64,000 nt of DNA from positions 8,137-72,136 of the forward strand of contig JAFTYO010000003.1 in assembly GCA_017464685.1 (NCBI GenBank), given 5' to 3'. Each line of letters starts with the position of its first letter. The first letter of the stretch is position 1. The DNA comes from Alphaproteobacteria bacterium. Lineage in GTDB: Bacteria; Pseudomonadota; Alphaproteobacteria; RF32; CAG-239. The translations under genes and the position numbers were made by a program. Under the pieces are notes generated by a model, which worked only from the letters and a program-made list of their open reading frames with translations, was not told where the DNA came from and ran no database searches. Shown piece after piece: positions 10,399 through 28,110 of this stretch.

Positions 10399-10605
10399 TT
10401 AGTGGGTGCGTGTGATAGTAACTGAATCTGTGTATTCACCTGCTTTAACATTGGCAGGGATATTTAAGGTAGTATCTAAAATAAGGAATATCAAATGCGA
10501 GTCATAAACATTACCGGTAATGTGAAAAATCCCCACATTGGCAAAGCTTATTTTTTTATCACCGATATTGTTTTCGGTTTTAGCCTGTGTGTAAATATAA
10601 ATGAG
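10399..10605 (-). pseudogene. promoterless, signal-peptide-less C-terminal fragment of the MRKYFLL/YTGSF secreted-protein family
   Basis: The minus-strand frame reads ..KKISFANVGIFHITGNV...LNIPANVKAGEYTDSVTITRTH*. This keeps the family's FG and G-x-Y-T-x-S-alternating C-terminal motifs. There is no ATG, no signal peptide and no promoter cassette. Confidence 0.45.
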
Positions 10606-10614
10606 GTTAGATAA

Positions 10615-11160
10615 ATGACGAAAAGTGCATCAAAAGATATATTGATTAAATTGCGACCGATAACATATTTAATCTGGTGTTTATTAATAATATTTGCAAG
10701 CATAAATATTTTTCAGATGGGGCTTGATACCAATACGCAAGGTTCAAGATGTGATTATTATTTATGGCAGGAAGGGCAGATTTATCAATGGATTATAGAC
10801 AATGAACCTTGCCGATTTACTTTAGAGTTTTTGGTCGGATATATTTTTTATTTTGTTTTATATACTTTGTTTGACTATGTTCGCAGACTGATAGTCGGTT
10901 TTAATCCGAAAACTGTTTGGCGAATTTGTGAAATCGGAGTATTATTCGGATTAATGTGGGGATATCTGCTTTGGCTTAGCGCAAACGCTTTTAACATGGT
11001 AAATTGGCAAGTGTATCTAAATTCATTTTTTGGAGTTTTATTATTTTTTATACCGATTATTTTTATTGCGATCTTGTTTCGTTTGTTTAATAATCGTACA
11101 GAATTATGCTTACTGTCATTAATTTTACTGCTCAGTTTAGGTTTTGTTATTGCAAATTAA
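10615..11160 (+). CDS. hypothetical multi-pass membrane protein
   Basis: Long ORF with 5-6 hydrophobic segments. No recognisable motif. Confidence 0.5.
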   Translation: MTKSASKDILIKLRPITYLIWCLLIIFASINIFQMGLDTNTQGSRCDYYLWQEGQIYQWIIDNEPCRFTLEFLVGYIFYFVLYTLFDYVRRLIVGFNPKTVWRICEIGVLFGLMWGYLLWLSANAFNMVNWQVYLNSFFGVLLFFIPIIFIAILFRLFNNRTELCLLSLILLLSLGFVIAN

Positions 11161-11205: not shown

Positions 11206-11697
11206 TTAGTAAGTTACAGTTAAAGTAAATGAACCGGTGTACTCACCTGCTAAGCTTTCCATTTCTGTATCTGCTGAACCGGGAATATAAAGAGTTGCTC
11301 CAATACGATATACATCGCCTGTATACTCGTCATAATATGCTTGGAAATCGCCTACGGTTAAATCGCCATTAGGTCCAGTAATTTTTGCATCATTTGGAAA
11401 GGTAATAGTAGAGCTATTACTAATATCACAAATTGCAGCAGACGAACCATTAACTGCTACAATCCTTTTACCACCTCCGTTATCTGTTATTTCAAAGTCA
11501 TCAAAAAGTATTTTAATATTACCCTCATTACCATCGTTTTTGTTGTCAAGAACAATATGACCGAAATTTAAAGGTGAACAAGTAATACTATCAGCCTCCG
11601 TAATTTTTGCAGTCATTTCAATTTCAGCATAATTGTCAGCGTTTGCGGTGCTTGTTGCCAAGAGTGCAATTGCGCTCAAAAGAAAATATTTTCTCAT
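11206..11697 (-). CDS. family copy 1: small secreted two-Cys beta-rich protein (SCPU/Csu-pilin-like layout)
   Basis: MRKYFLLSAIALLATSTANA signal peptide, C..NFGHI motif, a second Cys, and C-terminal AGEYTGSFTLTVTY. Preceded by the conserved cassette. Confidence 0.8.
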   Translation of the reverse strand: MRKYFLLSAIALLATSTANADNYAEIEMTAKITEADSITCSPLNFGHIVLDNKNDGNEGNIKILFDDFEITDNGGGKRIVAVNGSSAAICDISNSSTITFPNDAKITGPNGDLTVGDFQAYYDEYTGDVYRIGATLYIPGSADTEMESLAGEYTGSFTLTVTY

Positions 11698-11837
11698 AAT
11701 TTATATCCTTTCTATAAAAATTAAGTTTAAGTACATTTGAAAAGCTAAAAATTAGCCTCTCAGGTCGCATCTTAAACCGTTTTTTTTTTTTGCAAGTAAA
11801 AAGAGTCTTAATGTGAATTTAAATCAAAAATGGTGTA
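11698..11837 (-). promoter_or_regulatory. family promoter/5'UTR cassette, copy 1 (T12 tract 11780-11791)
   Basis: The reverse complement reads ..TTTGATTTAAAT..GACTCTTTTTACTTGC-A12-CGGTTTAAGATGCGACCTGAGAGGCTAATTTTTAGCTTTTCA..AGGA..ATG. It is nearly identical to the cassette at 29194-29331. Confidence 0.6.
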
Positions 11838-11976
11838 GAGGTGTTGCCTCCTTTACTGTCATACCGGTGCCCAAGCTTTAGCTTGGAATAGACACCGGTA
11901 TCCAGGGAATAATTTAGCTATATTACCACCTGGACTCCGGCATCAAGTGCCGGAGTGACAGTTAGGAGGTGGTTGC
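11838..11976 (+). repeat. structured repeat element A (long hairpin with two internal stem-loops)
   Basis: Arms GCCTCCTTTACTGTCA (11846-11861) and TGACAGTTAGGAGG (11956-11969). Inner hairpins CCAAGC-TTTA-GCTTGG (11871-11886) and CTCCGGCA-TCAA-GTGCCGGAG. Related copies lie at 57393-57505 and 37515-37650. Confidence 0.55.
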
Positions 11977-12206
11977 AAAGTATGAGAATAAAAAACAAAT
12001 ATTTTCCGATTAGTATTAATTCGAAGGCCCCAAGACATTTTTGCTAACTACAAAAATCAGTGGTGACTTTGTTTTTTACTTTTGAAATATATTAATGTAA
12101 ATGCCGAAAATATTGTTTTTAATATATTTTTATTGATATTTTGGATTTTTCGTGTTATAACAAATTTTGTAATGAAAATAACAATAATTTTTGAAAGGAA
12201 AAAAAT

Positions 12207-13094
12207 ATGTATAATTATCCAAAATATCAATCTTATGAACAAACTTACGACACAGGATATTCGAATAAGAATTTTCTTAATAAGCTTAAAGAATATGCCA
12301 ATCGGCAAAGATACTATGATACTATGTATGGAGGTTGGCATGGTATTGGTTGGAAAAATAATATAATGAGAACATTAACCCCAGATTATGATAATTTTTT
12401 AAAACCAAATAATATGACAGAACAGGGTATTAAGTATGCTCAAAATAACTATTCCGGTGTTGTAGCCGATACTAGTTATTATGACACTTATGATAGAAAT
12501 GTTGATTACTATTTTAATCGTGATAAAAATGATTTGTGTGAAAATGAAGGTGGATTTATACCATATGCCTATTTAGATACAGCTAAGCCACCAAAAACTA
12601 CCATAGGTTGCGGTATAAACATTGAAGATATTCCAAATGTACAATTATATCATGCTCAAACCGGAAACATTTTAAGTGATGAAGAATTACAATCAGAAAT
12701 GGAAAAATTAAAAGAATCGTATTTACATAATGGTAAACCGTCTTTTTATGAGAACAAATCAAATATTCGCATTGCGCAAGAAGAAAATGACCGTATAATG
12801 AAAATGTTATATACGCAAGGATATAATCATATGTTATCAAAATATCCTGATTATCATAGTTATACTCAAGGCAGGCAGAAATATTTAATGGATATGATAT
12901 ATAATTTAGGCCAACCTAAGTTTGATAAATATGTTAATATGCGTGATGCTATTTTACAAAATAATTGGAAACAAGCGGCTAATGAGGCATGGCGTTGTGG
13001 AGTTGATTTTGGTAGGAACAAAAGAACACTTGATAATATGTATCCGGGATTAAATGTTTATGAAATAAGTAAGGAGCATTGTAATTATGATTGA
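12207..13094 (+). CDS. GH24 (phage/T4-type) lysozyme-like protein with a Tyr/Asn-rich N-terminal extension and no signal peptide
   Basis: CENEGGFIPYAYLDTAKPPKTTIGCGIN matches the lysozyme E...D...T-I-G-x-G catalytic core. C-terminal W..AANEAWRCG..GRNKR. The N-terminus MYNYPKYQSYEQ is not hydrophobic. Confidence 0.6.
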   Translation: MYNYPKYQSYEQTYDTGYSNKNFLNKLKEYANRQRYYDTMYGGWHGIGWKNNIMRTLTPDYDNFLKPNNMTEQGIKYAQNNYSGVVADTSYYDTYDRNVDYYFNRDKNDLCENEGGFIPYAYLDTAKPPKTTIGCGINIEDIPNVQLYHAQTGNILSDEELQSEMEKLKESYLHNGKPSFYENKSNIRIAQEENDRIMKMLYTQGYNHMLSKYPDYHSYTQGRQKYLMDMIYNLGQPKFDKYVNMRDAILQNNWKQAANEAWRCGVDFGRNKRTLDNMYPGLNVYEISKEHCNYD

Positions 13095-13803
13095 TATAAA
13101 AAATATGTTTAAAACAGTGATTCTTGTTTTTATTTGTATGGGATATTTTGAAACTCAAGCAAAATATCCTGAAAATTGTGTTTTTTTAATTTCGGGAGAA
13201 TGTTTTGATTGTAACTCCGCTTATACTTTACAGATGGGACATGAGCAAAACTGTGTCACACATTGCCCGAACAGATTTTATCGTAAGGGTAAATATTACA
13301 AAACCTGTCAATTAACAGATGATAATACACTTAATTTTCCAAAATTGTTTTTTGATTCGGAAAATACTTCAAGGGAAAATTGCAAAAAAGACGGATATTT
13401 TTACGGCATTCATAATGATGATTGCTATTCATGTGACACAACAGCTCCGGTTTTTATATCGCCATCTTGTGCCCAAGATAAAAATTGCATACAACAATGT
13501 CCTAATCGCACAATTTTATATGTTTCGCAAACCGAAGTGGTAAGTGTGACAAAGTGTCCGACAGAGCGTCCCTTAATGGATAAATTTTTATTATGTTGGA
13601 GTTGCGATGAAACCACGCCTATTGATATGAGTTTTAATCAGGATAAAATTTGGGATACTGCGCAAAATCCTTGCTTAGGATTGCGATATATAGATAAAAT
13701 AAGCAATCCGTTCAGTATGCTTTGTCCGGAAGATAAAAAGAATTTATCTGAAGAAGCTTGTCATCAATGTCTGGGAATATGGAAAGACAATCAATGTAAA
13801 TAA
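13087..13803 (+). CDS. secreted cysteine-rich protein with furin-like/growth-factor-receptor-like C-x2-C...C-x3-CP repeats
   Basis: Signal peptide (VILVFICMGYFETQA) and about 28 Cys. Repeated CFDCNS..NCVTHCPNRFY / CYSCDT..NCIQQCPNRTILY / CWSCDE units. The start overlaps the lysozyme-like gene by 8 nt. Confidence 0.65.
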   Translation: MIDIKNMFKTVILVFICMGYFETQAKYPENCVFLISGECFDCNSAYTLQMGHEQNCVTHCPNRFYRKGKYYKTCQLTDDNTLNFPKLFFDSENTSRENCKKDGYFYGIHNDDCYSCDTTAPVFISPSCAQDKNCIQQCPNRTILYVSQTEVVSVTKCPTERPLMDKFLLCWSCDETTPIDMSFNQDKIWDTAQNPCLGLRYIDKISNPFSMLCPEDKKNLSEEACHQCLGIWKDNQCK

Positions 13804-13856: not shown

Positions 13857-14312
13857 CTATGCAGAAAGAAATGTTACCTCAAATGATCCGGTATAACTTG
13901 TAGGAGTTACACCCGCAGGAATGGATAAAGTTCCATTAATTGAGTTATACTCCCATTGTTCAGGCTTAAATGTTAAAACTTTTGATTCGCCCTCTGCACT
14001 TAGGGTTACAGTTTCAGATGAAAAATACATGACAGATGCTGCATCTAATTGACAATAAGCAGCCTCTGGGGCATCAGCACTTACAAAATCAGGACTGTCA
14101 CTTTCCGTAGTTACATCATTAATTAGTCTAACATTTACATCGCCATGACCGGCTTTTAAATAAAGAGTGCCAAAATTCACATCAGAACAATTAACTTCAT
14201 TTGCGTGTGCAATAGTAACATTAACCGCTAATTCTGAATATGCATTACTTTCAGCATCAACATTTGTTGCCATCATCAAAGCCGCAGCAGTAAGAAGAAA
14301 ATATTTTCTCAT
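13857..14312 (-). CDS. family copy 2: small secreted two-Cys beta-rich protein
   Basis: MRKYFLLTAAALMMATNVDA signal peptide, C..NFGTLY motif, a second Cys, and C-terminal SYTGSFEVTFLSA. Confidence 0.8.
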   Translation of the reverse strand: MRKYFLLTAAALMMATNVDAESNAYSELAVNVTIAHANEVNCSDVNFGTLYLKAGHGDVNVRLINDVTTESDSPDFVSADAPEAAYCQLDAASVMYFSSETVTLSAEGESKVLTFKPEQWEYNSINGTLSIPAGVTPTSYTGSFEVTFLSA

Positions 14313-23845: not shown

Positions 23846-24583
23846 ATGAGTACTGTTTATATCAATCAACCGGTGATTATATTGGTAAAACCGCAAATGG
23901 CTGAGAACGTGGGTATGACTGCACGTGCAATGATGAATTGCGGATTGTATAATTTGCGTCTTGTTTGTCCCAGAGAAAACCATTTATCACAAATTGCCGT
24001 GAGAGCTTCCTCAGGCGCTGAAAAAATTTTACAAAATGCCAAAGTTTATAATTCTACCATTGAAGCGATTGCCGATTTAACAGACGTTTATGCCACAACG
24101 GCTCGGCGCAGAAACCAAATCAAAACAATATTTACAGCAGAAAAAGCTGCATCAAATATGTTCAAAAACATCAAAAACGGAGCAAATTGTGGAATTTTGT
24201 TTGGTCCTGAAAGAACAGGCCTTGAAAATGATGATATATCACTTGCTAAAGCTATTGTGGAAATTCCGCTAAATCCGGAACACACTTCACTTAATTTGTC
24301 GCAGGCAGTGTTGCTTGTAGGATATGAGTGGTTTAAAACTCAAATAGATGTATCGGGTGAAGAATTTGTAACCAATGCAACCCACTTAGCCACTAATGAA
24401 CAACTGATGAAGTTTTTTGACTTTTGGGAAAATAAATTAATTGATTATAAAAATCTTGCTGATGAGCAAAAAAAAACCATATTGTTACGCAACTTACATA
24501 ACATTTTTACTCGCAACCGAATGACTGAACAAGAACTAAACAGCTTGTATGGAATCATTAATTATTTAGTAAAAAATAAATAA
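23846..24583 (+). CDS. trmJ: SpoU/TrmH-family RNA 2'-O-methyltransferase (TrmJ-like)
   Basis: ILVKPQMAENVGMTARAMMNCG, ILFGPERTGL and SLNLSQAV motifs of SPOUT methyltransferases. Confidence 0.7.
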   Translation: MSTVYINQPVIILVKPQMAENVGMTARAMMNCGLYNLRLVCPRENHLSQIAVRASSGAEKILQNAKVYNSTIEAIADLTDVYATTARRRNQIKTIFTAEKAASNMFKNIKNGANCGILFGPERTGLENDDISLAKAIVEIPLNPEHTSLNLSQAVLLVGYEWFKTQIDVSGEEFVTNATHLATNEQLMKFFDFWENKLIDYKNLADEQKKTILLRNLHNIFTRNRMTEQELNSLYGIINYLVKNK

Positions 24584-24605
24584 TTGGTTATATCTCATTT
24601 TTATA

Positions 24606-25985
24606 TTATGCTTTTTTCCAAGTAGTACCGGTTGGAGTATCTTCTAAGATGATATTTTGTTCTTTTAACTCATTTCTGATTTTATCCGCTGTTGCCCAAT
24701 CTTTGTTCTTTTTGGCTTCCAAACGAGCTTCAATCAGTTTTTCAATTTGTAAATCATCAGTGTCGGAAGTGTTTCCTTTAAACCACATTGAGGGTTCTTG
24801 ATACAACAAACCTAACAGTTCGGCACTGGCCAGCAACTCATTTTTTAAGGCCGATTTTTCTTGAGTGTTTTTTGCTTTATTAAGATTACCTACAATTTCA
24901 TGCAACACTGATATTGCAAGCGGTGTGTTCAAATCATCTTGCAAAGCATTGACGATTTTTTCATTAGCATCAACTTTTTTAACTTCAATGTCGGCATTTT
25001 TAAGCAGTGCATTATAAAACTTATCAAGTGTTGCTTTAGCTTGTTCAAGACCAGTAAATGTAAAATTAAACGGTTGATGATAGTGTGTGGTTAAAAACAA
25101 CAAACGCAATGCTTCGGCCGGATATTTTGAAATTATCTCATCAACATTATGAAAATTGCCTAACGATTTTGACATCTTAACACCATCAACCATCAGCATT
25201 CCGGCATGTACCCAGTAATGTGCATAGGACGAACCTTTGAATGCACATGTAGATTGTGCACATTCATTTTCATGGTGCGGAAAGATTAAATCAGAACCGC
25301 CACCATGAATATCAAAATCATTGCCCAAAAGTTTTGAGCTCATGGCCGAACATTCAAGATGCCACCCCGGTCTACCAAATCCCCAAGGACTATCCCAACC
25401 TAGTTGATTTTCATCTGATGGTTTCCACAAAATGAAATCTGCCGGATTTTTCTTATAATCTGCTACCTCAATGCGAGCACCGGCCAACATCTCTTTTAAT
25501 GAGCGCCCCGAAAGATAGCCGTAATTTTTCATTGAATCGACATCAAACAATACATGACCATGTGATTCATAAGCATGACCGTTTTCAAGCAATAGTTTTA
25601 CAATTTCTATCATCTCGGAAATATATTCGGTAGCTCTCGGACGATGATTAGGGGATAGGACATTTAGTTTTGCCATATCTTCAATGTACCACTTATATGT
25701 TTCTTCGGTAATTTCTCGTATGGATTTTCCTGTTTGTTGATGTTTGTTTAAAATTTTATCATCAACGTCTGTGATATTTGAAGCATAAGTTACATGTTCT
25801 TTACCATAGGCATTACACAACATACGATACATAACGTCAAAAACAACTGATGTTTTGGCGTTTCCTAAGTGAGCTCTGTCATAAACAGTGGGGCCGCATA
25901 CATACAAACGCACATTTTTTTCATCAATCGGGATAAATTTTTCTTTACGTTGTTTTAAGGTGTTATGTAAAAATATGTCAGTCAT
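24606..25985 (-). CDS. cysS: cysteine--tRNA ligase
   Basis: HLGN (HIGH-type) and KMSKS motifs, Zn-binding Cys residues, 459 aa. Confidence 0.9.
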   Translation of the reverse strand: MTDIFLHNTLKQRKEKFIPIDEKNVRLYVCGPTVYDRAHLGNAKTSVVFDVMYRMLCNAYGKEHVTYASNITDVDDKILNKHQQTGKSIREITEETYKWYIEDMAKLNVLSPNHRPRATEYISEMIEIVKLLLENGHAYESHGHVLFDVDSMKNYGYLSGRSLKEMLAGARIEVADYKKNPADFILWKPSDENQLGWDSPWGFGRPGWHLECSAMSSKLLGNDFDIHGGGSDLIFPHHENECAQSTCAFKGSSYAHYWVHAGMLMVDGVKMSKSLGNFHNVDEIISKYPAEALRLLFLTTHYHQPFNFTFTGLEQAKATLDKFYNALLKNADIEVKKVDANEKIVNALQDDLNTPLAISVLHEIVGNLNKAKNTQEKSALKNELLASAELLGLLYQEPSMWFKGNTSDTDDLQIEKLIEARLEAKKNKDWATADKIRNELKEQNIILEDTPTGTTWKKA

Positions 25986-25996
25986 AATATGTCCTT

Positions 25997-27319
25997 TTAT
26001 GCCTTTATTCCATTTAAGCGTTTAAATGCTTTTTCATATCCGATAAGCAGTAACAAAACTTTAAGTTCGGGGCCGTTTTCTTGTCCGGTTAAAGCCATAC
26101 GAATCGGGTGAAAAAGCTCTTTTCCTTTTTTGCCGGTTGCGGTTTTAACTTCATTTATCCAAACCGAAAATGTATCACAATTCCAATTGTCTTGCGGTAA
26201 CAATTTTGCCGCTTGAGAAGTAAAGTTTGTATCTTCGACAACAGGCTCAATTTGGTCATTGCAAATATTGTTCCAAACTTTGTAATCTTCCACTTTTTCC
26301 AAATTTGCCTTAATTTTTTCCCAAAAATCTTCATCAACGAACACTCTGTCTTTTACGGTTTCATAGGGCAAAGTATGAATATATTTTAAGTTGAAATGTT
26401 TTAATTCTTCTTCATCAAACTTTGGTTGCGAACGACCTATTTTGCTAAAGTCTAACGATTGAGCCAAATCTTCCAAACTATAAAACGGCTCAATGGCTTC
26501 AGATGTGCCGAGTTTGGCTAAAAATGAACAAATGGTCATGTTTTCGACACCGTTATCTTTAAGGTCTTTAACACCCAAACTTCCCAAACGCTTTGAAAGC
26601 TTGCCTTCTTTCCCGGTCAATAAAGGCAAATGAGCAAAAGTCGGAACTTTGCCGCCGATAGCTTCAAACATCTGAATTTGTGATGCAGTGTTAGTCACAT
26701 GGTCTTCACCACGAACAATGTGAGTAATACCAAAATCACAGTCGTCAATTACTGACGGTAAATGATATAAATATGATCCGTCTTCACGAATGATAATCGT
26801 GTCACTAAGATTTTGAGCTTCATATTTTACCCAGCCTCTAACCACATCATTCCAAGCAATTTCGCCTTGAATAAGCTTGAAACGATAGTGCGGTTTTCGG
26901 CCTTCGGCTTCAAATTTTGCAATATCTTCTTGTGTATAGTTTAAGGCCTGTCTGTCATAAATCGGGGGTAAGCCTTTCGCAAAAGCTCGCTTGCGTTTAA
27001 ACTCAAGCTCCTCGGCGGTTTCATAACAAGGATAAATGCGCCCCTGTTGGATAAGTTTTTGCGTTACTTCATTATAGTGTTCGAAACGAGCCGATTGGCG
27101 AGCTTCTTCTTCCCAAGTTAAACCGAGCCAAACAAGACTTTCACGCAAATAATCTTCATATTCTTTTTTTGAACGAACAGAATCGGTATCATCAATGCGG
27201 AGCATAAATTTTCCGCCCATTTTTTTTGCCCAAAGCCAGTTAAACAAGGCTGTTCTGATATTACCGATGTGCATATATCCGGTCGGACTTGGTGCAAATC
27301 TTACTTTAATGTTTGTCAT
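25997..27319 (-). CDS. gltX: glutamate--tRNA ligase
   Basis: RFAPSPTGYMHIGN and KLSKR motifs, 440 aa. Confidence 0.9.
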   Translation of the reverse strand: MTNIKVRFAPSPTGYMHIGNIRTALFNWLWAKKMGGKFMLRIDDTDSVRSKKEYEDYLRESLVWLGLTWEEEARQSARFEHYNEVTQKLIQQGRIYPCYETAEELEFKRKRAFAKGLPPIYDRQALNYTQEDIAKFEAEGRKPHYRFKLIQGEIAWNDVVRGWVKYEAQNLSDTIIIREDGSYLYHLPSVIDDCDFGITHIVRGEDHVTNTASQIQMFEAIGGKVPTFAHLPLLTGKEGKLSKRLGSLGVKDLKDNGVENMTICSFLAKLGTSEAIEPFYSLEDLAQSLDFSKIGRSQPKFDEEELKHFNLKYIHTLPYETVKDRVFVDEDFWEKIKANLEKVEDYKVWNNICNDQIEPVVEDTNFTSQAAKLLPQDNWNCDTFSVWINEVKTATGKKGKELFHPIRMALTGQENGPELKVLLLLIGYEKAFKRLNGIKA

Positions 27320-27399
27320 TTTCTACATTCTTCCTTTTTAAAAACTAGGAGCATAATATAGACTTTAACTTACAAATTCAACTTTAAAATGTGGATAAA

Positions 27400-28062
27400 T
27401 CAGTAATTATCAGCTTTTTCTTGTGCTGTTTTTTCCGCCGATACGACCAAATCGGCAAAATCTTCCAAAAACCAACTCATTTCTTCATCTAAATCGGTTA
27501 TCATAGTGTAAAAACGAGTTCGATAAGTGCTCAGTAAACTGCTTTGTTCAAAAATCAAATCAACAATTTTAATTTTTTGATTGTTTTGTGTGAGTTTAAA
27601 TTTGACGTTTATACTTTTTAAATTTTCACTTTCAAATTGTTCAGGTAATTGAACAGAGCAAGTAACATCGGTAAATTTCTGATTTTGTTTTACCGATAAT
27701 ATTTCAAAATCAAGTCCTTTTGTATCGAAGTTAATAGGATAATTTTTGTAGACACTTAAAGCGTAGCGAGAAAATAAATCAACATATTGTTTTTGTTGAA
27801 AACTATCCATAGCTTTCCAATATTTACCGATAACAAAACGAGCCATATATTGTGTATCAACATCTTCTTTGAACATTTTATCAAGAGTTTCATATTTACT
27901 TAAAATGTCAGAAGATGATAAAGCATCAATCAATTTATGACCGGTAGCATTTATCCAAGAAACGGCATCATTTTTATTTACAGAATCTGCATAAGCTAAA
28001 GAGACGGATAATAAAAAGCAAAAAATGCTGATAAATATTTTTAATAAAGACTTACTATTCAT
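27400..28062 (-). CDS. mlaC: MlaC/Ttg2D-like periplasmic phospholipid-binding protein
   Basis: Signal peptide, then MARFVIGKYWK...F..Y....Y, characteristic of the toluene-tolerance Ttg2D/MlaC family. The ATG at 28062 (MNSKSLL) is preferred. Confidence 0.6.
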   Translation of the reverse strand: MNSKSLLKIFISIFCFLLSVSLAYADSVNKNDAVSWINATGHKLIDALSSSDILSKYETLDKMFKEDVDTQYMARFVIGKYWKAMDSFQQKQYVDLFSRYALSVYKNYPINFDTKGLDFEILSVKQNQKFTDVTCSVQLPEQFESENLKSINVKFKLTQNNQKIKIVDLIFEQSSLLSTYRTRFYTMITDLDEEMSWFLEDFADLVVSAEKTAQEKADNY

Positions 28063-28110
28063 TAAGAATTCCTGACATATAATGAAACACACAAATTAAG
28101 TATAACAAAA

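Follow-up and report, generated by a model that had tools for sequence, protein, structure and literature searches.

In a 64,000-nucleotide stretch of alphaproteobacterial DNA (hereafter the window; contig C3:8137-72136 of a low-GC genome of 1.38 Mb that is 85% complete), two overlapping genes encode a lysozyme-like protein (the toxin) and a Cys-rich exported protein (the partner). We conclude that they probably form a polymorphic toxin-immunity module for competition between bacteria, at a rough probability of 0.8, a figure that excludes any delivery route. An earlier note made from the DNA letters alone had proposed an effector/immunity pair, and this proposal is supported by the linkage of the two genes across genomes, by the sharing of an N-terminal module with other peptidoglycan toxins, by an orphan partner gene and by deletions that remove the toxin only. 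The general kind, polymorphic peptidoglycan-targeting toxins, is already known. What is unusual is that the N-terminal carrier is tiny and promoter-linked, with no known secretion system behind it in a clade free of type VI secretion systems (T6SS), that the partner is a new, disulfide-rich lysozyme-inhibitor candidate, and that the locus resembles an expression site that sheds orphan immunity genes.

The toxin gene (12207..13094, + strand; 295 aa) comprises a module that we call module A (residues 1-43), a disordered Tyr/Asn-rich linker (44-97) and a GH24/T4-gp5-type muramidase domain (98-295); its 3' end reads ...AAT TAT GAT TGA, with the stop codon at 13092-13094. The best homologues of the toxin and of the partner have E values of 1e-83 and 3e-95, respectively, and therefore neither open reading frame (ORF) is due to chance. 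The muramidase domain contains the motif ENEGGFIPYAYLDTAKPPKTTIGCG. In an alignment of 11 family sequences, in which the conserved core starts at residue 98, Glu114 is conserved in at least 90% of the homologues and Asp124 and Thr132-Ile-Gly-Cys-Gly are invariant, so that the spacing E114-x9-D124-x7-T132-IGCG is a conserved property of the family. The corresponding codons occupy 12546-12548, 12576-12578 and 12600-12602 (catalytic motif 12546..12602, +). The T4/lambda-type Glu...Asp...Thr core named in the earlier note is thus borne out. The Tyr/Asn-richness of the N-terminal extension (16 Tyr, 12 Asn) also stood, although the extension is about 97 aa long rather than about 110. The toxin has no hydrophobic segment, with a highest 19-residue Kyte-Doolittle mean of 0.27, in agreement with the claim that it lacks a signal peptide.

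The AlphaFold (AF2) model of the toxin is disordered over residues 1-95 (predicted local distance difference test, pLDDT, < 50) except for a helix at 17-40, and has a core (residues 96-295) with a pLDDT of about 75. In this core a helix (99-112) is followed by Glu114, and Asp124 and Thr132 are on strands 121-123 and 131-133, a layout that we take to match that of E11, D20 and T26 in T4 lysozyme. A Foldseek search of the PDB, which the earlier note had suggested as a check on both proteins, ranks T4 lysozymes first (probability 1.0, E = 1.7e-4, about 190 aligned columns), with a template-modelling score of 0.61, normalised to the 164-aa target, across the whole T4 lysozyme length of 162-164 residues. 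In a profile search against PDB sequences, gp5 tail-lysozyme domains are closest, including 6xc0 and 7cn7, and a PHROG endolysin family matches weakly, at E = 0.006. On the strength of the motif and the model, we accept the domain as a GH24-type muramidase fold with an intact catalytic motif and a predicted enzymatic activity.

The partner gene (13087..13803, +; 238 aa), the candidate immunity gene, begins with an ATG at 13087 that overlaps the toxin ORF by 8 nt, as had been noticed before. A Shine-Dalgarno sequence, AAGGAG (13071..13076, +), lies 10 nt upstream of this ATG, inside the Lys-Glu codons of the conserved ...KEHC tail of the toxin; the EHC tail is kept in most toxin homologues in the family alignment. 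The protein has a predicted Sec-type signal peptide (residues ~1-25, ...FETQA/KYPENC) followed by a mature domain, and here the earlier description was right about the signal peptide and too high in its count of about 28 Cys. There are 21, of which 20 are in the mature part, nearly all of them invariant among homologues, and the mature part is built of three loosely repeated C...CxxC...NC..HCPNR units. The structure model is of moderate confidence (pLDDT 69). No Pfam, NCBIfam (E <= 0.1) or PHROG family matches the partner, and the fold check that succeeded for the toxin returned no PDB or BFVD match to the partner model at E <= 0.001; a furin- or EGF-like nature was rejected on the same absence of Pfam and fold matches. 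A profile search of 1.84 billion representatives gave 103 matches, comprising four full-length relatives and many long multi-repeat proteins, which makes the Cys-rich unit an extracytoplasmic building block restricted to this clade. As a candidate lysozyme inhibitor, the partner is new, rich in disulfides and of no known fold.

The evidence that ties the two proteins together comes from their distribution. A Cys-rich homologue is directly 3' of, or overlaps, the lysozyme gene in nine of nine contexts of the close lysozyme subfamily (the window; L008 = G115; L011 = G199; L012; L014 = G080; L016; G198; G044; G187), with two copies in tandem in L014 and three in G044. Of 201 related genomes, seven have the close subfamily, and in these it always has one to three adjoining Cys-rich genes. 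The flanking genes differ from context to context (ATP synthase/dnaJ, pfk/enolase/thioredoxin, mlaA/mlaC/hflX, metG/mscS, phage head genes), and the lysozyme/Cys-rich pair therefore moves as a unit. Pairwise identities of toxins and partners co-vary (r = 0.90), the partner diverging faster. None of the eight toxins checked has a hydrophobic segment, and the partners all have a signal peptide, a lipobox or transmembrane helices. Cys-rich homologues also occur without a lysozyme, in G139, G183, G120, G141, G072 and G086. A toxin that is never found without its partner, together with a partner that is sometimes found alone, is the signature of a toxin-immunity system. In the first four of these genomes (L025, L026, L027 and L028, respectively) the homologues are proteins of about 500 aa with two tandem Cys-rich domains, 47-48 Cys and no adjoining lysozyme; these double-domain proteins may be broad-spectrum orphan immunity proteins.

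The rule of a downstream, co-directional partner did not extend to more distant GH24 relatives, fitting only 6 of 36. At five distant loci inspected by eye, a partner-like lipoprotein or secreted-protein gene is instead convergent. In several genera, the gene that converges on the 3' end of a distant GH24 toxin gene belongs to one family of Cys-containing lipoproteins or secreted proteins (...QNKEEKFVNPVFYEKM...; L049:1446-2234, L057:599-1381, L064:661-1449, L079:2180-2629 and L016:9-440). This is a second candidate immunity family, with the arrangement seen for the immunity genes of pore-forming colicins.

The second line of evidence is that the 5' end of the toxin gene is an exchangeable cassette. 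The module A cassette (12080..12335, +), which is common to several toxin genes, contains a conserved promoter region, a leader of about 45 nt with the Shine-Dalgarno sequence AAAGGA, and codons 1-43 (MYNYPKYQSYEQTYDTGYSNKNFLNKLKEYANRQRYYDTMYGG). Within it we read by eye a putative sigma-70 promoter, TTGATA-17 nt-TATAAC (12133..12161, +); a promoter scan did not list this candidate, whose -10 hexamer ends in C. At the three module A loci of this genome, the DNA is nearly identical from about 150 bp upstream, through promoter and leader, to about 130 bp into the coding sequence, beyond which the loci diverge. In one of the others (C1:51941-52573), module A precedes a Tlde1 domain (39.6 bits by Pfam) with the motif H-x6-S-A-G-C, against H-x6-S-H-G-C in Tlde1a (PMC9638812); the next gene encodes a 123-aa transmembrane protein. 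The third (C32:921-1262, - strand) is a 113-aa gene with a hydrophobic tail and no partner gene, bracketed by genes of the pilin-like DUF4402 family; it probably represents either a toxin in decay or an 'expression site' that is empty. In a sister species, on contig L004 (5874-6129), a cassette 93% identical to that of the window heads a gene for an SLT-domain protein (P0012), which is followed by a 181-aa partner with several transmembrane segments. P0012 is at the syntenic site, with the gene order mlaE-mlaF-radA-cvpA and about 91% nucleotide identity to the window locus. Module A is thus joined to GH24, Tlde1, SLT and a short remnant, that is, to alternative C-terminal toxin domains behind a constant N-terminus. 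A search of 5.8 billion proteins for module A found three homologues, confined to the module A proteins of this genome and P0012, and two of the seven genomes of the genus have it. The N-terminal modules have no Pfam, NCBIfam or PHROG match, and so contain no recognisable trafficking domain tied to a secretion system.

Other modules of this kind are present in the clade. A second polymorphic toxin set in the same genome (C51:24469-28952) has two genes with a common N-terminal module B of about 100 aa (MPYETYMGTFKNEND..., MPYETYMG...). In one (25259-26263), which has a lipoprotein gene (26302-26934) behind it, module B is joined to another GH24-like domain; the other (27062-28063) joins it to an unidentified domain homologous to the C-terminus of L008:3577-4674. 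These toxin genes have conserved upstream regions in which the motif G(G/A)ACATTT(T/G)A occurs three times, and a type IV pilin-like gene (24469-25140) is located just upstream of them. In L008, three toxins share a third N-terminal module. Forty further loci contain at least three N-terminal module types conserved across genera, in addition to MuF-like fusions. Module A and the ~110-aa 'Type 2' module found in other genera begin alike, with M.xY.KY.S, but homology of the two was rejected (hhalign probability 0.3%). The MuF-like fusions (L043:1192-2094, L065:1471-2295 and L071:53-922) have GH24 domains behind a ...(H)P(N)C / CRCWAEPY motif, which we take to be the end of a phage MuF head-protein domain; the same GH24 toxin domain thus appears also to travel as a MuF-type phage toxin.

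The third line of evidence is the loss of toxins from loci at which their partners are retained. Upstream of the pair in the window is an orphan immunity-like gene (10615..11160, +; 181 aa, about 4-5 transmembrane segments), a homologue of the SLT-toxin partner of the sister species. The orphan is 88% identical in amino acids and 91.5% in nucleotides to L004 6719-7264; its ORF is intact and its dN/dS is 0.43. Compared with the intact arrangement in L004, the window has lost the SLT toxin and the 5' part of the adjoining DUF4402 gene, of which a 3' remnant (...LNIPANVKAGEYTDSVTITRTH, up to the stop codon) is left at 10399..10605 (-). This remnant marks one border of the deletion by which the SLT toxin was lost.

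A corresponding loss affects the GH24 toxin itself in four public gut metagenomes from three studies (runs X5, X7, X8 and X9; contigs at >=95% identity). In these runs the read depth drops to zero across 12414-12615 and stays near zero as far as 12700, an interval that includes the catalytic codons, whereas module A and 12700/12741-13853, containing the 3' end of the lysozyme gene and the Cys-rich gene, are covered. An explicit joint 11462->12741 is present in X5 and X7, from two studies, and 13853 is joined to 11201 in X5, X8 and X9. The resulting array, [DUF4402 remnant - truncated lysozyme - Cys-rich gene] - DUF4402, has the architecture of the SLT-partner orphan in the window. In the variant runs module A continues past 12335 into other sequences, with at least two further continuations, which implies further toxins on the same cassette. 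The variant contigs are assembler output from mixed samples, and are credible but not strain-resolved. Loss of the toxin with retention of immunity points to active toxin-mediated selection in the gut. None of the RNA runs holds the toxin gene, so they give no evidence of its transcription.

These observations suggest the following model. The toxin would be made in the cytoplasm, where its substrate is lacking, and on reaching the periplasm of a neighbouring cell its T4/gp5-type muramidase domain would cut the glycan strands of peptidoglycan. Module A would be the shared carrier or delivery part, onto which the periplasm-acting GH24, Tlde1 and SLT domains are swapped. Translation of the partner would be coupled to that of the toxin on the same mRNA, through the Shine-Dalgarno sequence inside the last toxin codons; the partner would then be exported by Sec, fold with about 10 disulfides and block the muramidase in the periplasm, shielding the producer and its kin. 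At module A, new toxin-immunity cassettes would displace old ones, and the 5' half of a displaced toxin gene would be lost, its immunity gene staying behind as an orphan.

How the toxin would leave the cell is less clear. The T6SS marker TssC/VipB (PF05943) was found neither in this genome nor in any of 201 related ones, of which 197 have a completeness of 90% or more, and a T6SS is excluded for the whole clade. The genome also has no FlhA, no contractile phage sheath gene, no C39 peptidase and no TonB-dependent receptor above the cut-off (best score 17.8 bits against 27). By these markers we rejected flagellar or type III secretion (no FlhA), carriage by an extracellular contractile injection system or tailocin with an N-terminal packaging tag (no sheath gene), and a double-glycine leader with export by a C39-peptidase ABC transporter, an idea suggested by the ...YGG end of module A (no C39 peptidase, and no GG in the other modules). 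VirD4 (PF02534) is present on contig C25 with 136 bits and in 199 of the 201 relatives, and, reading from this marker, a VirB/VirD4-type type IV secretion system (T4SS) appears to be core to the clade. A search for T6SS and T4SS loci, proposed in the earlier note, was therefore negative for the former and positive for the latter. Because it is the only dedicated protein-translocating machine found, the chromosomal T4SS is by elimination our leading guess for the export route, at well under even odds; the bacteriocin-like route considered below is about as likely, and the rest of the probability goes to another or an unrecognised route. A positively charged C-terminal tail was rejected as the T4SS signal, since the ...GKKKK of several homologues is absent from the window protein and its sister toxins. 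The virD4 gene itself (740 aa; C25:65295-73327) is apart from the T4SS channel genes, preceded by genes for Trp-rich membrane proteins of 162 and 497 aa and followed by one for a 242-aa membrane protein, surroundings that are conserved in the genus (L034, L039). A VirD4-linked HNH/SUKH toxin pair was also considered and rejected: six genomes of the family have membrane proteins beside virD4, and there is no link to module A.

Several observations weigh against the toxin-immunity module or the route proposed for it. The toxin scores 17.5 bits with Pfam PF00959 (Phage_lysozyme), below the family cut-off of 22.3, and over the C-terminal lobe only; the homologues P0008 and L011:3956-5017 likewise score near the threshold. 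With hhalign, too, the C-terminal lobe alone aligns to T4 lysozyme, with no residue-level match to E11/D20/T26. Because the Pfam score is below the cut-off and covers one lobe, the lysozyme assignment rests on the motif and the predicted fold, and it is from the motif and the secondary structure of the model that we propose Glu114, Asp124 and Thr132 to be equivalent to E11, D20 and T26. The partner has no sequence or fold likeness to the lysozyme inhibitors and immunity proteins Ivy, MliC/PliC, PliG, PliI, Tsi3, Pim and Spackle, and its repeat unit also occurs in large multi-repeat proteins; we therefore infer inhibition from linkage alone. The toxin has no secretion signal of a known type. 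Against the T4SS route, module A is N-terminal whereas known T4SS signals are C-terminal, only two of seven genus genomes have module A, and the toxin genes are not linked to T4SS genes. Negative results for this genome carry its completeness of 85%. The muramidase activity and toxicity of the toxin, its neutralisation by the partner and its export route are predictions. Finally, in one of the nine contexts, L016, the pair adjoins phage genes.

The last point bears on a phage derivation, in which the pair would be a virion-associated or lysis enzyme with a Spackle-like superinfection-exclusion factor, or the cargo of a phage-like particle with an N-terminal packaging tag. In L016 (2597-6764) the pair is directly upstream of a podophage-like block, in which a 300-aa protein is encoded together with a major head protein (phrog_9953, E = 3e-104) and a tail protein (phrog_6013). 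There, either the pair is phage-borne cargo or its lysozyme is a component of the virion. The closest solved sequence relatives of the toxin, the T4 gp5 tail-lysozyme domains in 6xc0 and 7cn7 (which we take to be gp5-Spackle complexes), and the related GH24 domains fused behind the presumably MuF-typical CRCWAEPY motif point the same way. We nevertheless judge a phage derivation to be quite improbable. The other eight contexts are among housekeeping genes, and the window contains no holin, spanin or phage genes by ORF list and Pfam, so that the earlier preference against a prophage endolysin stands with L016 as its exception. The L016 head and tail proteins have no homologue in this genome even at E < 10, a search for podophage-like structural genes there found none, and there is no sheath gene. 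Tlde1-type domains, to one of which module A is also fused, are not lysis enzymes, and the Cys-rich model has no counterpart among viral protein structures. Very improbable indeed is a role for the pair as a housekeeping peptidoglycan-remodelling enzyme and its periplasmic regulator, for example making room for a T4SS or pili, rather than as a weapon. Lytic transglycosylases and lysozyme-like enzymes, such as VirB1, do assist the assembly of envelope-spanning machines, and the flanking DUF4402 genes are pilin-like. However, the enzyme has no signal peptide and could not reach its own periplasm by Sec, its distribution is patchy (7 of 201 genomes for the close subfamily), natural strains have deleted it and kept the partner, and unrelated toxin domains have been swapped in at the same site.

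A closer rival is that the same pair acts as a diffusible bacteriocin of the colicin/pesticin type, released by leakage or lysis, with the disordered N-terminus serving for receptor binding and translocation across the outer membrane. A variable N-terminus, a C-terminal killing domain and an adjoining immunity gene follow the pesticin/colicin order, and the pesticin immunity protein Pim is periplasmic (PMC3390615). Residues 1-95 are predicted to be disordered and are rich in Tyr, Asn and Gly; the N-terminal modules vary between species of one genus, like receptor-binding parts; and all identified killing domains (GH24, SLT, Tlde1) act on periplasmic peptidoglycan, which leaves the outer membrane alone to cross. 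In E-colicins and S-pyocins a promoter and N-terminal part are likewise common to toxins with different killing domains, and the convergent immunity-like lipoprotein genes of the distant relatives are placed as in pore-forming colicins. On the other hand, module A (43 aa) and even the whole extension (~97 aa) are short for receptor binding plus translocation, and the lack of a TonB-dependent receptor above the cut-off makes a pesticin-like TonB route unlikely in kin. No lysis gene or release mechanism was found, and no TonB-box or TolB-box motif is evident by eye. We regard delivery as a bacteriocin as less likely than not, but about on a par with export by the T4SS.

The toxin-immunity module can be compared with several known systems. 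Pesticin and Pim resemble it in having a signal-less toxin with a C-terminal T4-lysozyme fold, a non-catalytic N-terminal delivery part and an adjoining gene for a periplasmic immunity protein (PMC3390615). Pesticin degrades peptidoglycan in the periplasm of its target, as predicted for the toxin here, and one of the best fold matches is to the T4L part of the pesticin-T4L hybrid 4epi. Pesticin, however, carries a TonB box in a folded part of 167 aa for receptor binding and translocation, and its port of entry is the TonB-dependent receptor FyuA, whereas the toxin here has a disordered extension of about 97 aa in a genome with no detectable TonB-dependent receptor. The partner is unrelated to Pim, having 20 Cys and no known fold, and, unlike pesticin and the colicins, the genes are chromosomal, between pilin-like genes, and have a swappable 5' cassette. 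T6SS effectors (Tge/Tgi, the VgrG-pesticin TssI2/TsiI2 and Tlde1/Tldi1) share the bicistronic layout, the signal-less periplasm-acting toxins and the orphan immunity genes (PMC9638812; PMC9620997; PMC12247911), but here there is no T6SS and, by Pfam, no MIX, PAAR, Rhs, VgrG or Hcp-type carrier in the N-terminal parts.

The X-Tfe/X-Tfi pairs of Xanthomonadales are similar in their chromosomal VirB/VirD4 system, which here is in essentially every clade genome, and in their dispersed effector genes. They are a precedent for the T4SS route, in that many X-Tfes degrade peptidoglycan and are counteracted by immunity proteins in the periplasm (PMC6536674). The hallmark of an X-Tfe is a C-terminal XVIPCD of about 120 aa, which binds VirD4, and in most cases the immunity gene is upstream and encodes a lipoprotein (PMC6536674). 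The review of these systems makes no mention of Alphaproteobacteria (PMC6536674). In our toxin, by contrast, there is no space for an XVIPCD, as the lysozyme domain reaches about residue 291 of 295, and it is the N-terminus that carries the shared module; the immunity gene follows the toxin gene, and its product is not a lipoprotein. The phage T4 gp5/Spackle pair is alike in that the GH24 domain of gp5 is the closest solved sequence relative. The gp5 lysozyme is neutralised in the periplasm by the small, secreted, helical Spackle, whereas our partner, a disulfide-rich protein of 213 aa, matches no known fold, and the window has no phage context. Contact-dependent inhibition (CDI; cdiA-CT/cdiI), Rhs and MuF systems also combine a constant N-terminus, a variable C-terminal toxin and a cognate downstream immunity gene, and polymorphic toxin systems characteristically contain toxin remnants that have been displaced and have lost their 5' end, alongside orphan immunity genes. 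The present constant part differs in being tiny (43 aa), in having no known domain and in including the promoter, and its cassettes are bracketed by members of a pilin-like family of about 40.

This small-genome clade of Alphaproteobacteria is widespread in animal and human guts. To our knowledge it has no cultured member. Despite having no T6SS, it has an arsenal of interchangeable cell-wall toxins, which includes a Tlde1-type domain previously tied to the T6SS. Module A defines a 43-aa candidate delivery tag, and the Cys-rich partner offers a new disulfide-rich candidate lysozyme inhibitor. A more speculative extension, which we consider unlikely, is that the short promoter-linked N-terminal cassettes (module A, module B and Types 1-3) define a new, T6SS-independent delivery of periplasm-acting toxins throughout the clade, by a T4SS that reads N-terminal signals or by a route tied to the hypervariable DUF4402 pilin-like genes. 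The locus would then be an expression site at which incoming cassettes displace the resident toxin and an array of orphan immunity genes grows, and the partner would represent a new structural class of lysozyme inhibitor.

The pair has DUF4402 genes, sodC, cvpA and radA as neighbours (ORF list and Pfam). As the earlier note had seen, it is between two copies of one family: the upstream DUF4402 gene (11206..11697, -; Pfam E = 1.8e-6) is divergent from the toxin gene and the downstream one (13857..14312, -) is convergent with the pair. The family has about 40 dispersed copies in this genome and brackets all three module A loci in constant orientation, upstream divergent and downstream convergent. 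With about 3% of genes in the family, such bracketing is very unlikely to arise by chance, by a rough estimate and no formal test. It is absent in relatives of other genera.

The placement of the pair downstream of a structured element likewise held up. Between the DUF4402 promoter and module A, at about 11838-11976, there is a GC-rich multi-hairpin element that folds strongly (-69.5 kcal/mol, z = -6.2 against shuffles). A scan of 11650-12250 gave no real Rfam match, and a known RNA was rejected. On contig L004 of the sister species the element comes after a DUF4402 gene that has no toxin beside it, and the C1 toxin locus lacks the element; it therefore travels with the pilin-like gene cassette and not with the toxin. 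A further motif, TGACTTTGTTTTT, is present at 12062-12078 of the window, upstream of 1262 on C32 and upstream of 3577 and 6001 in L008. It precedes toxin genes with unrelated N-terminal modules in different genera, in genomes that are AT-rich, and may be a common regulatory or promoter element.

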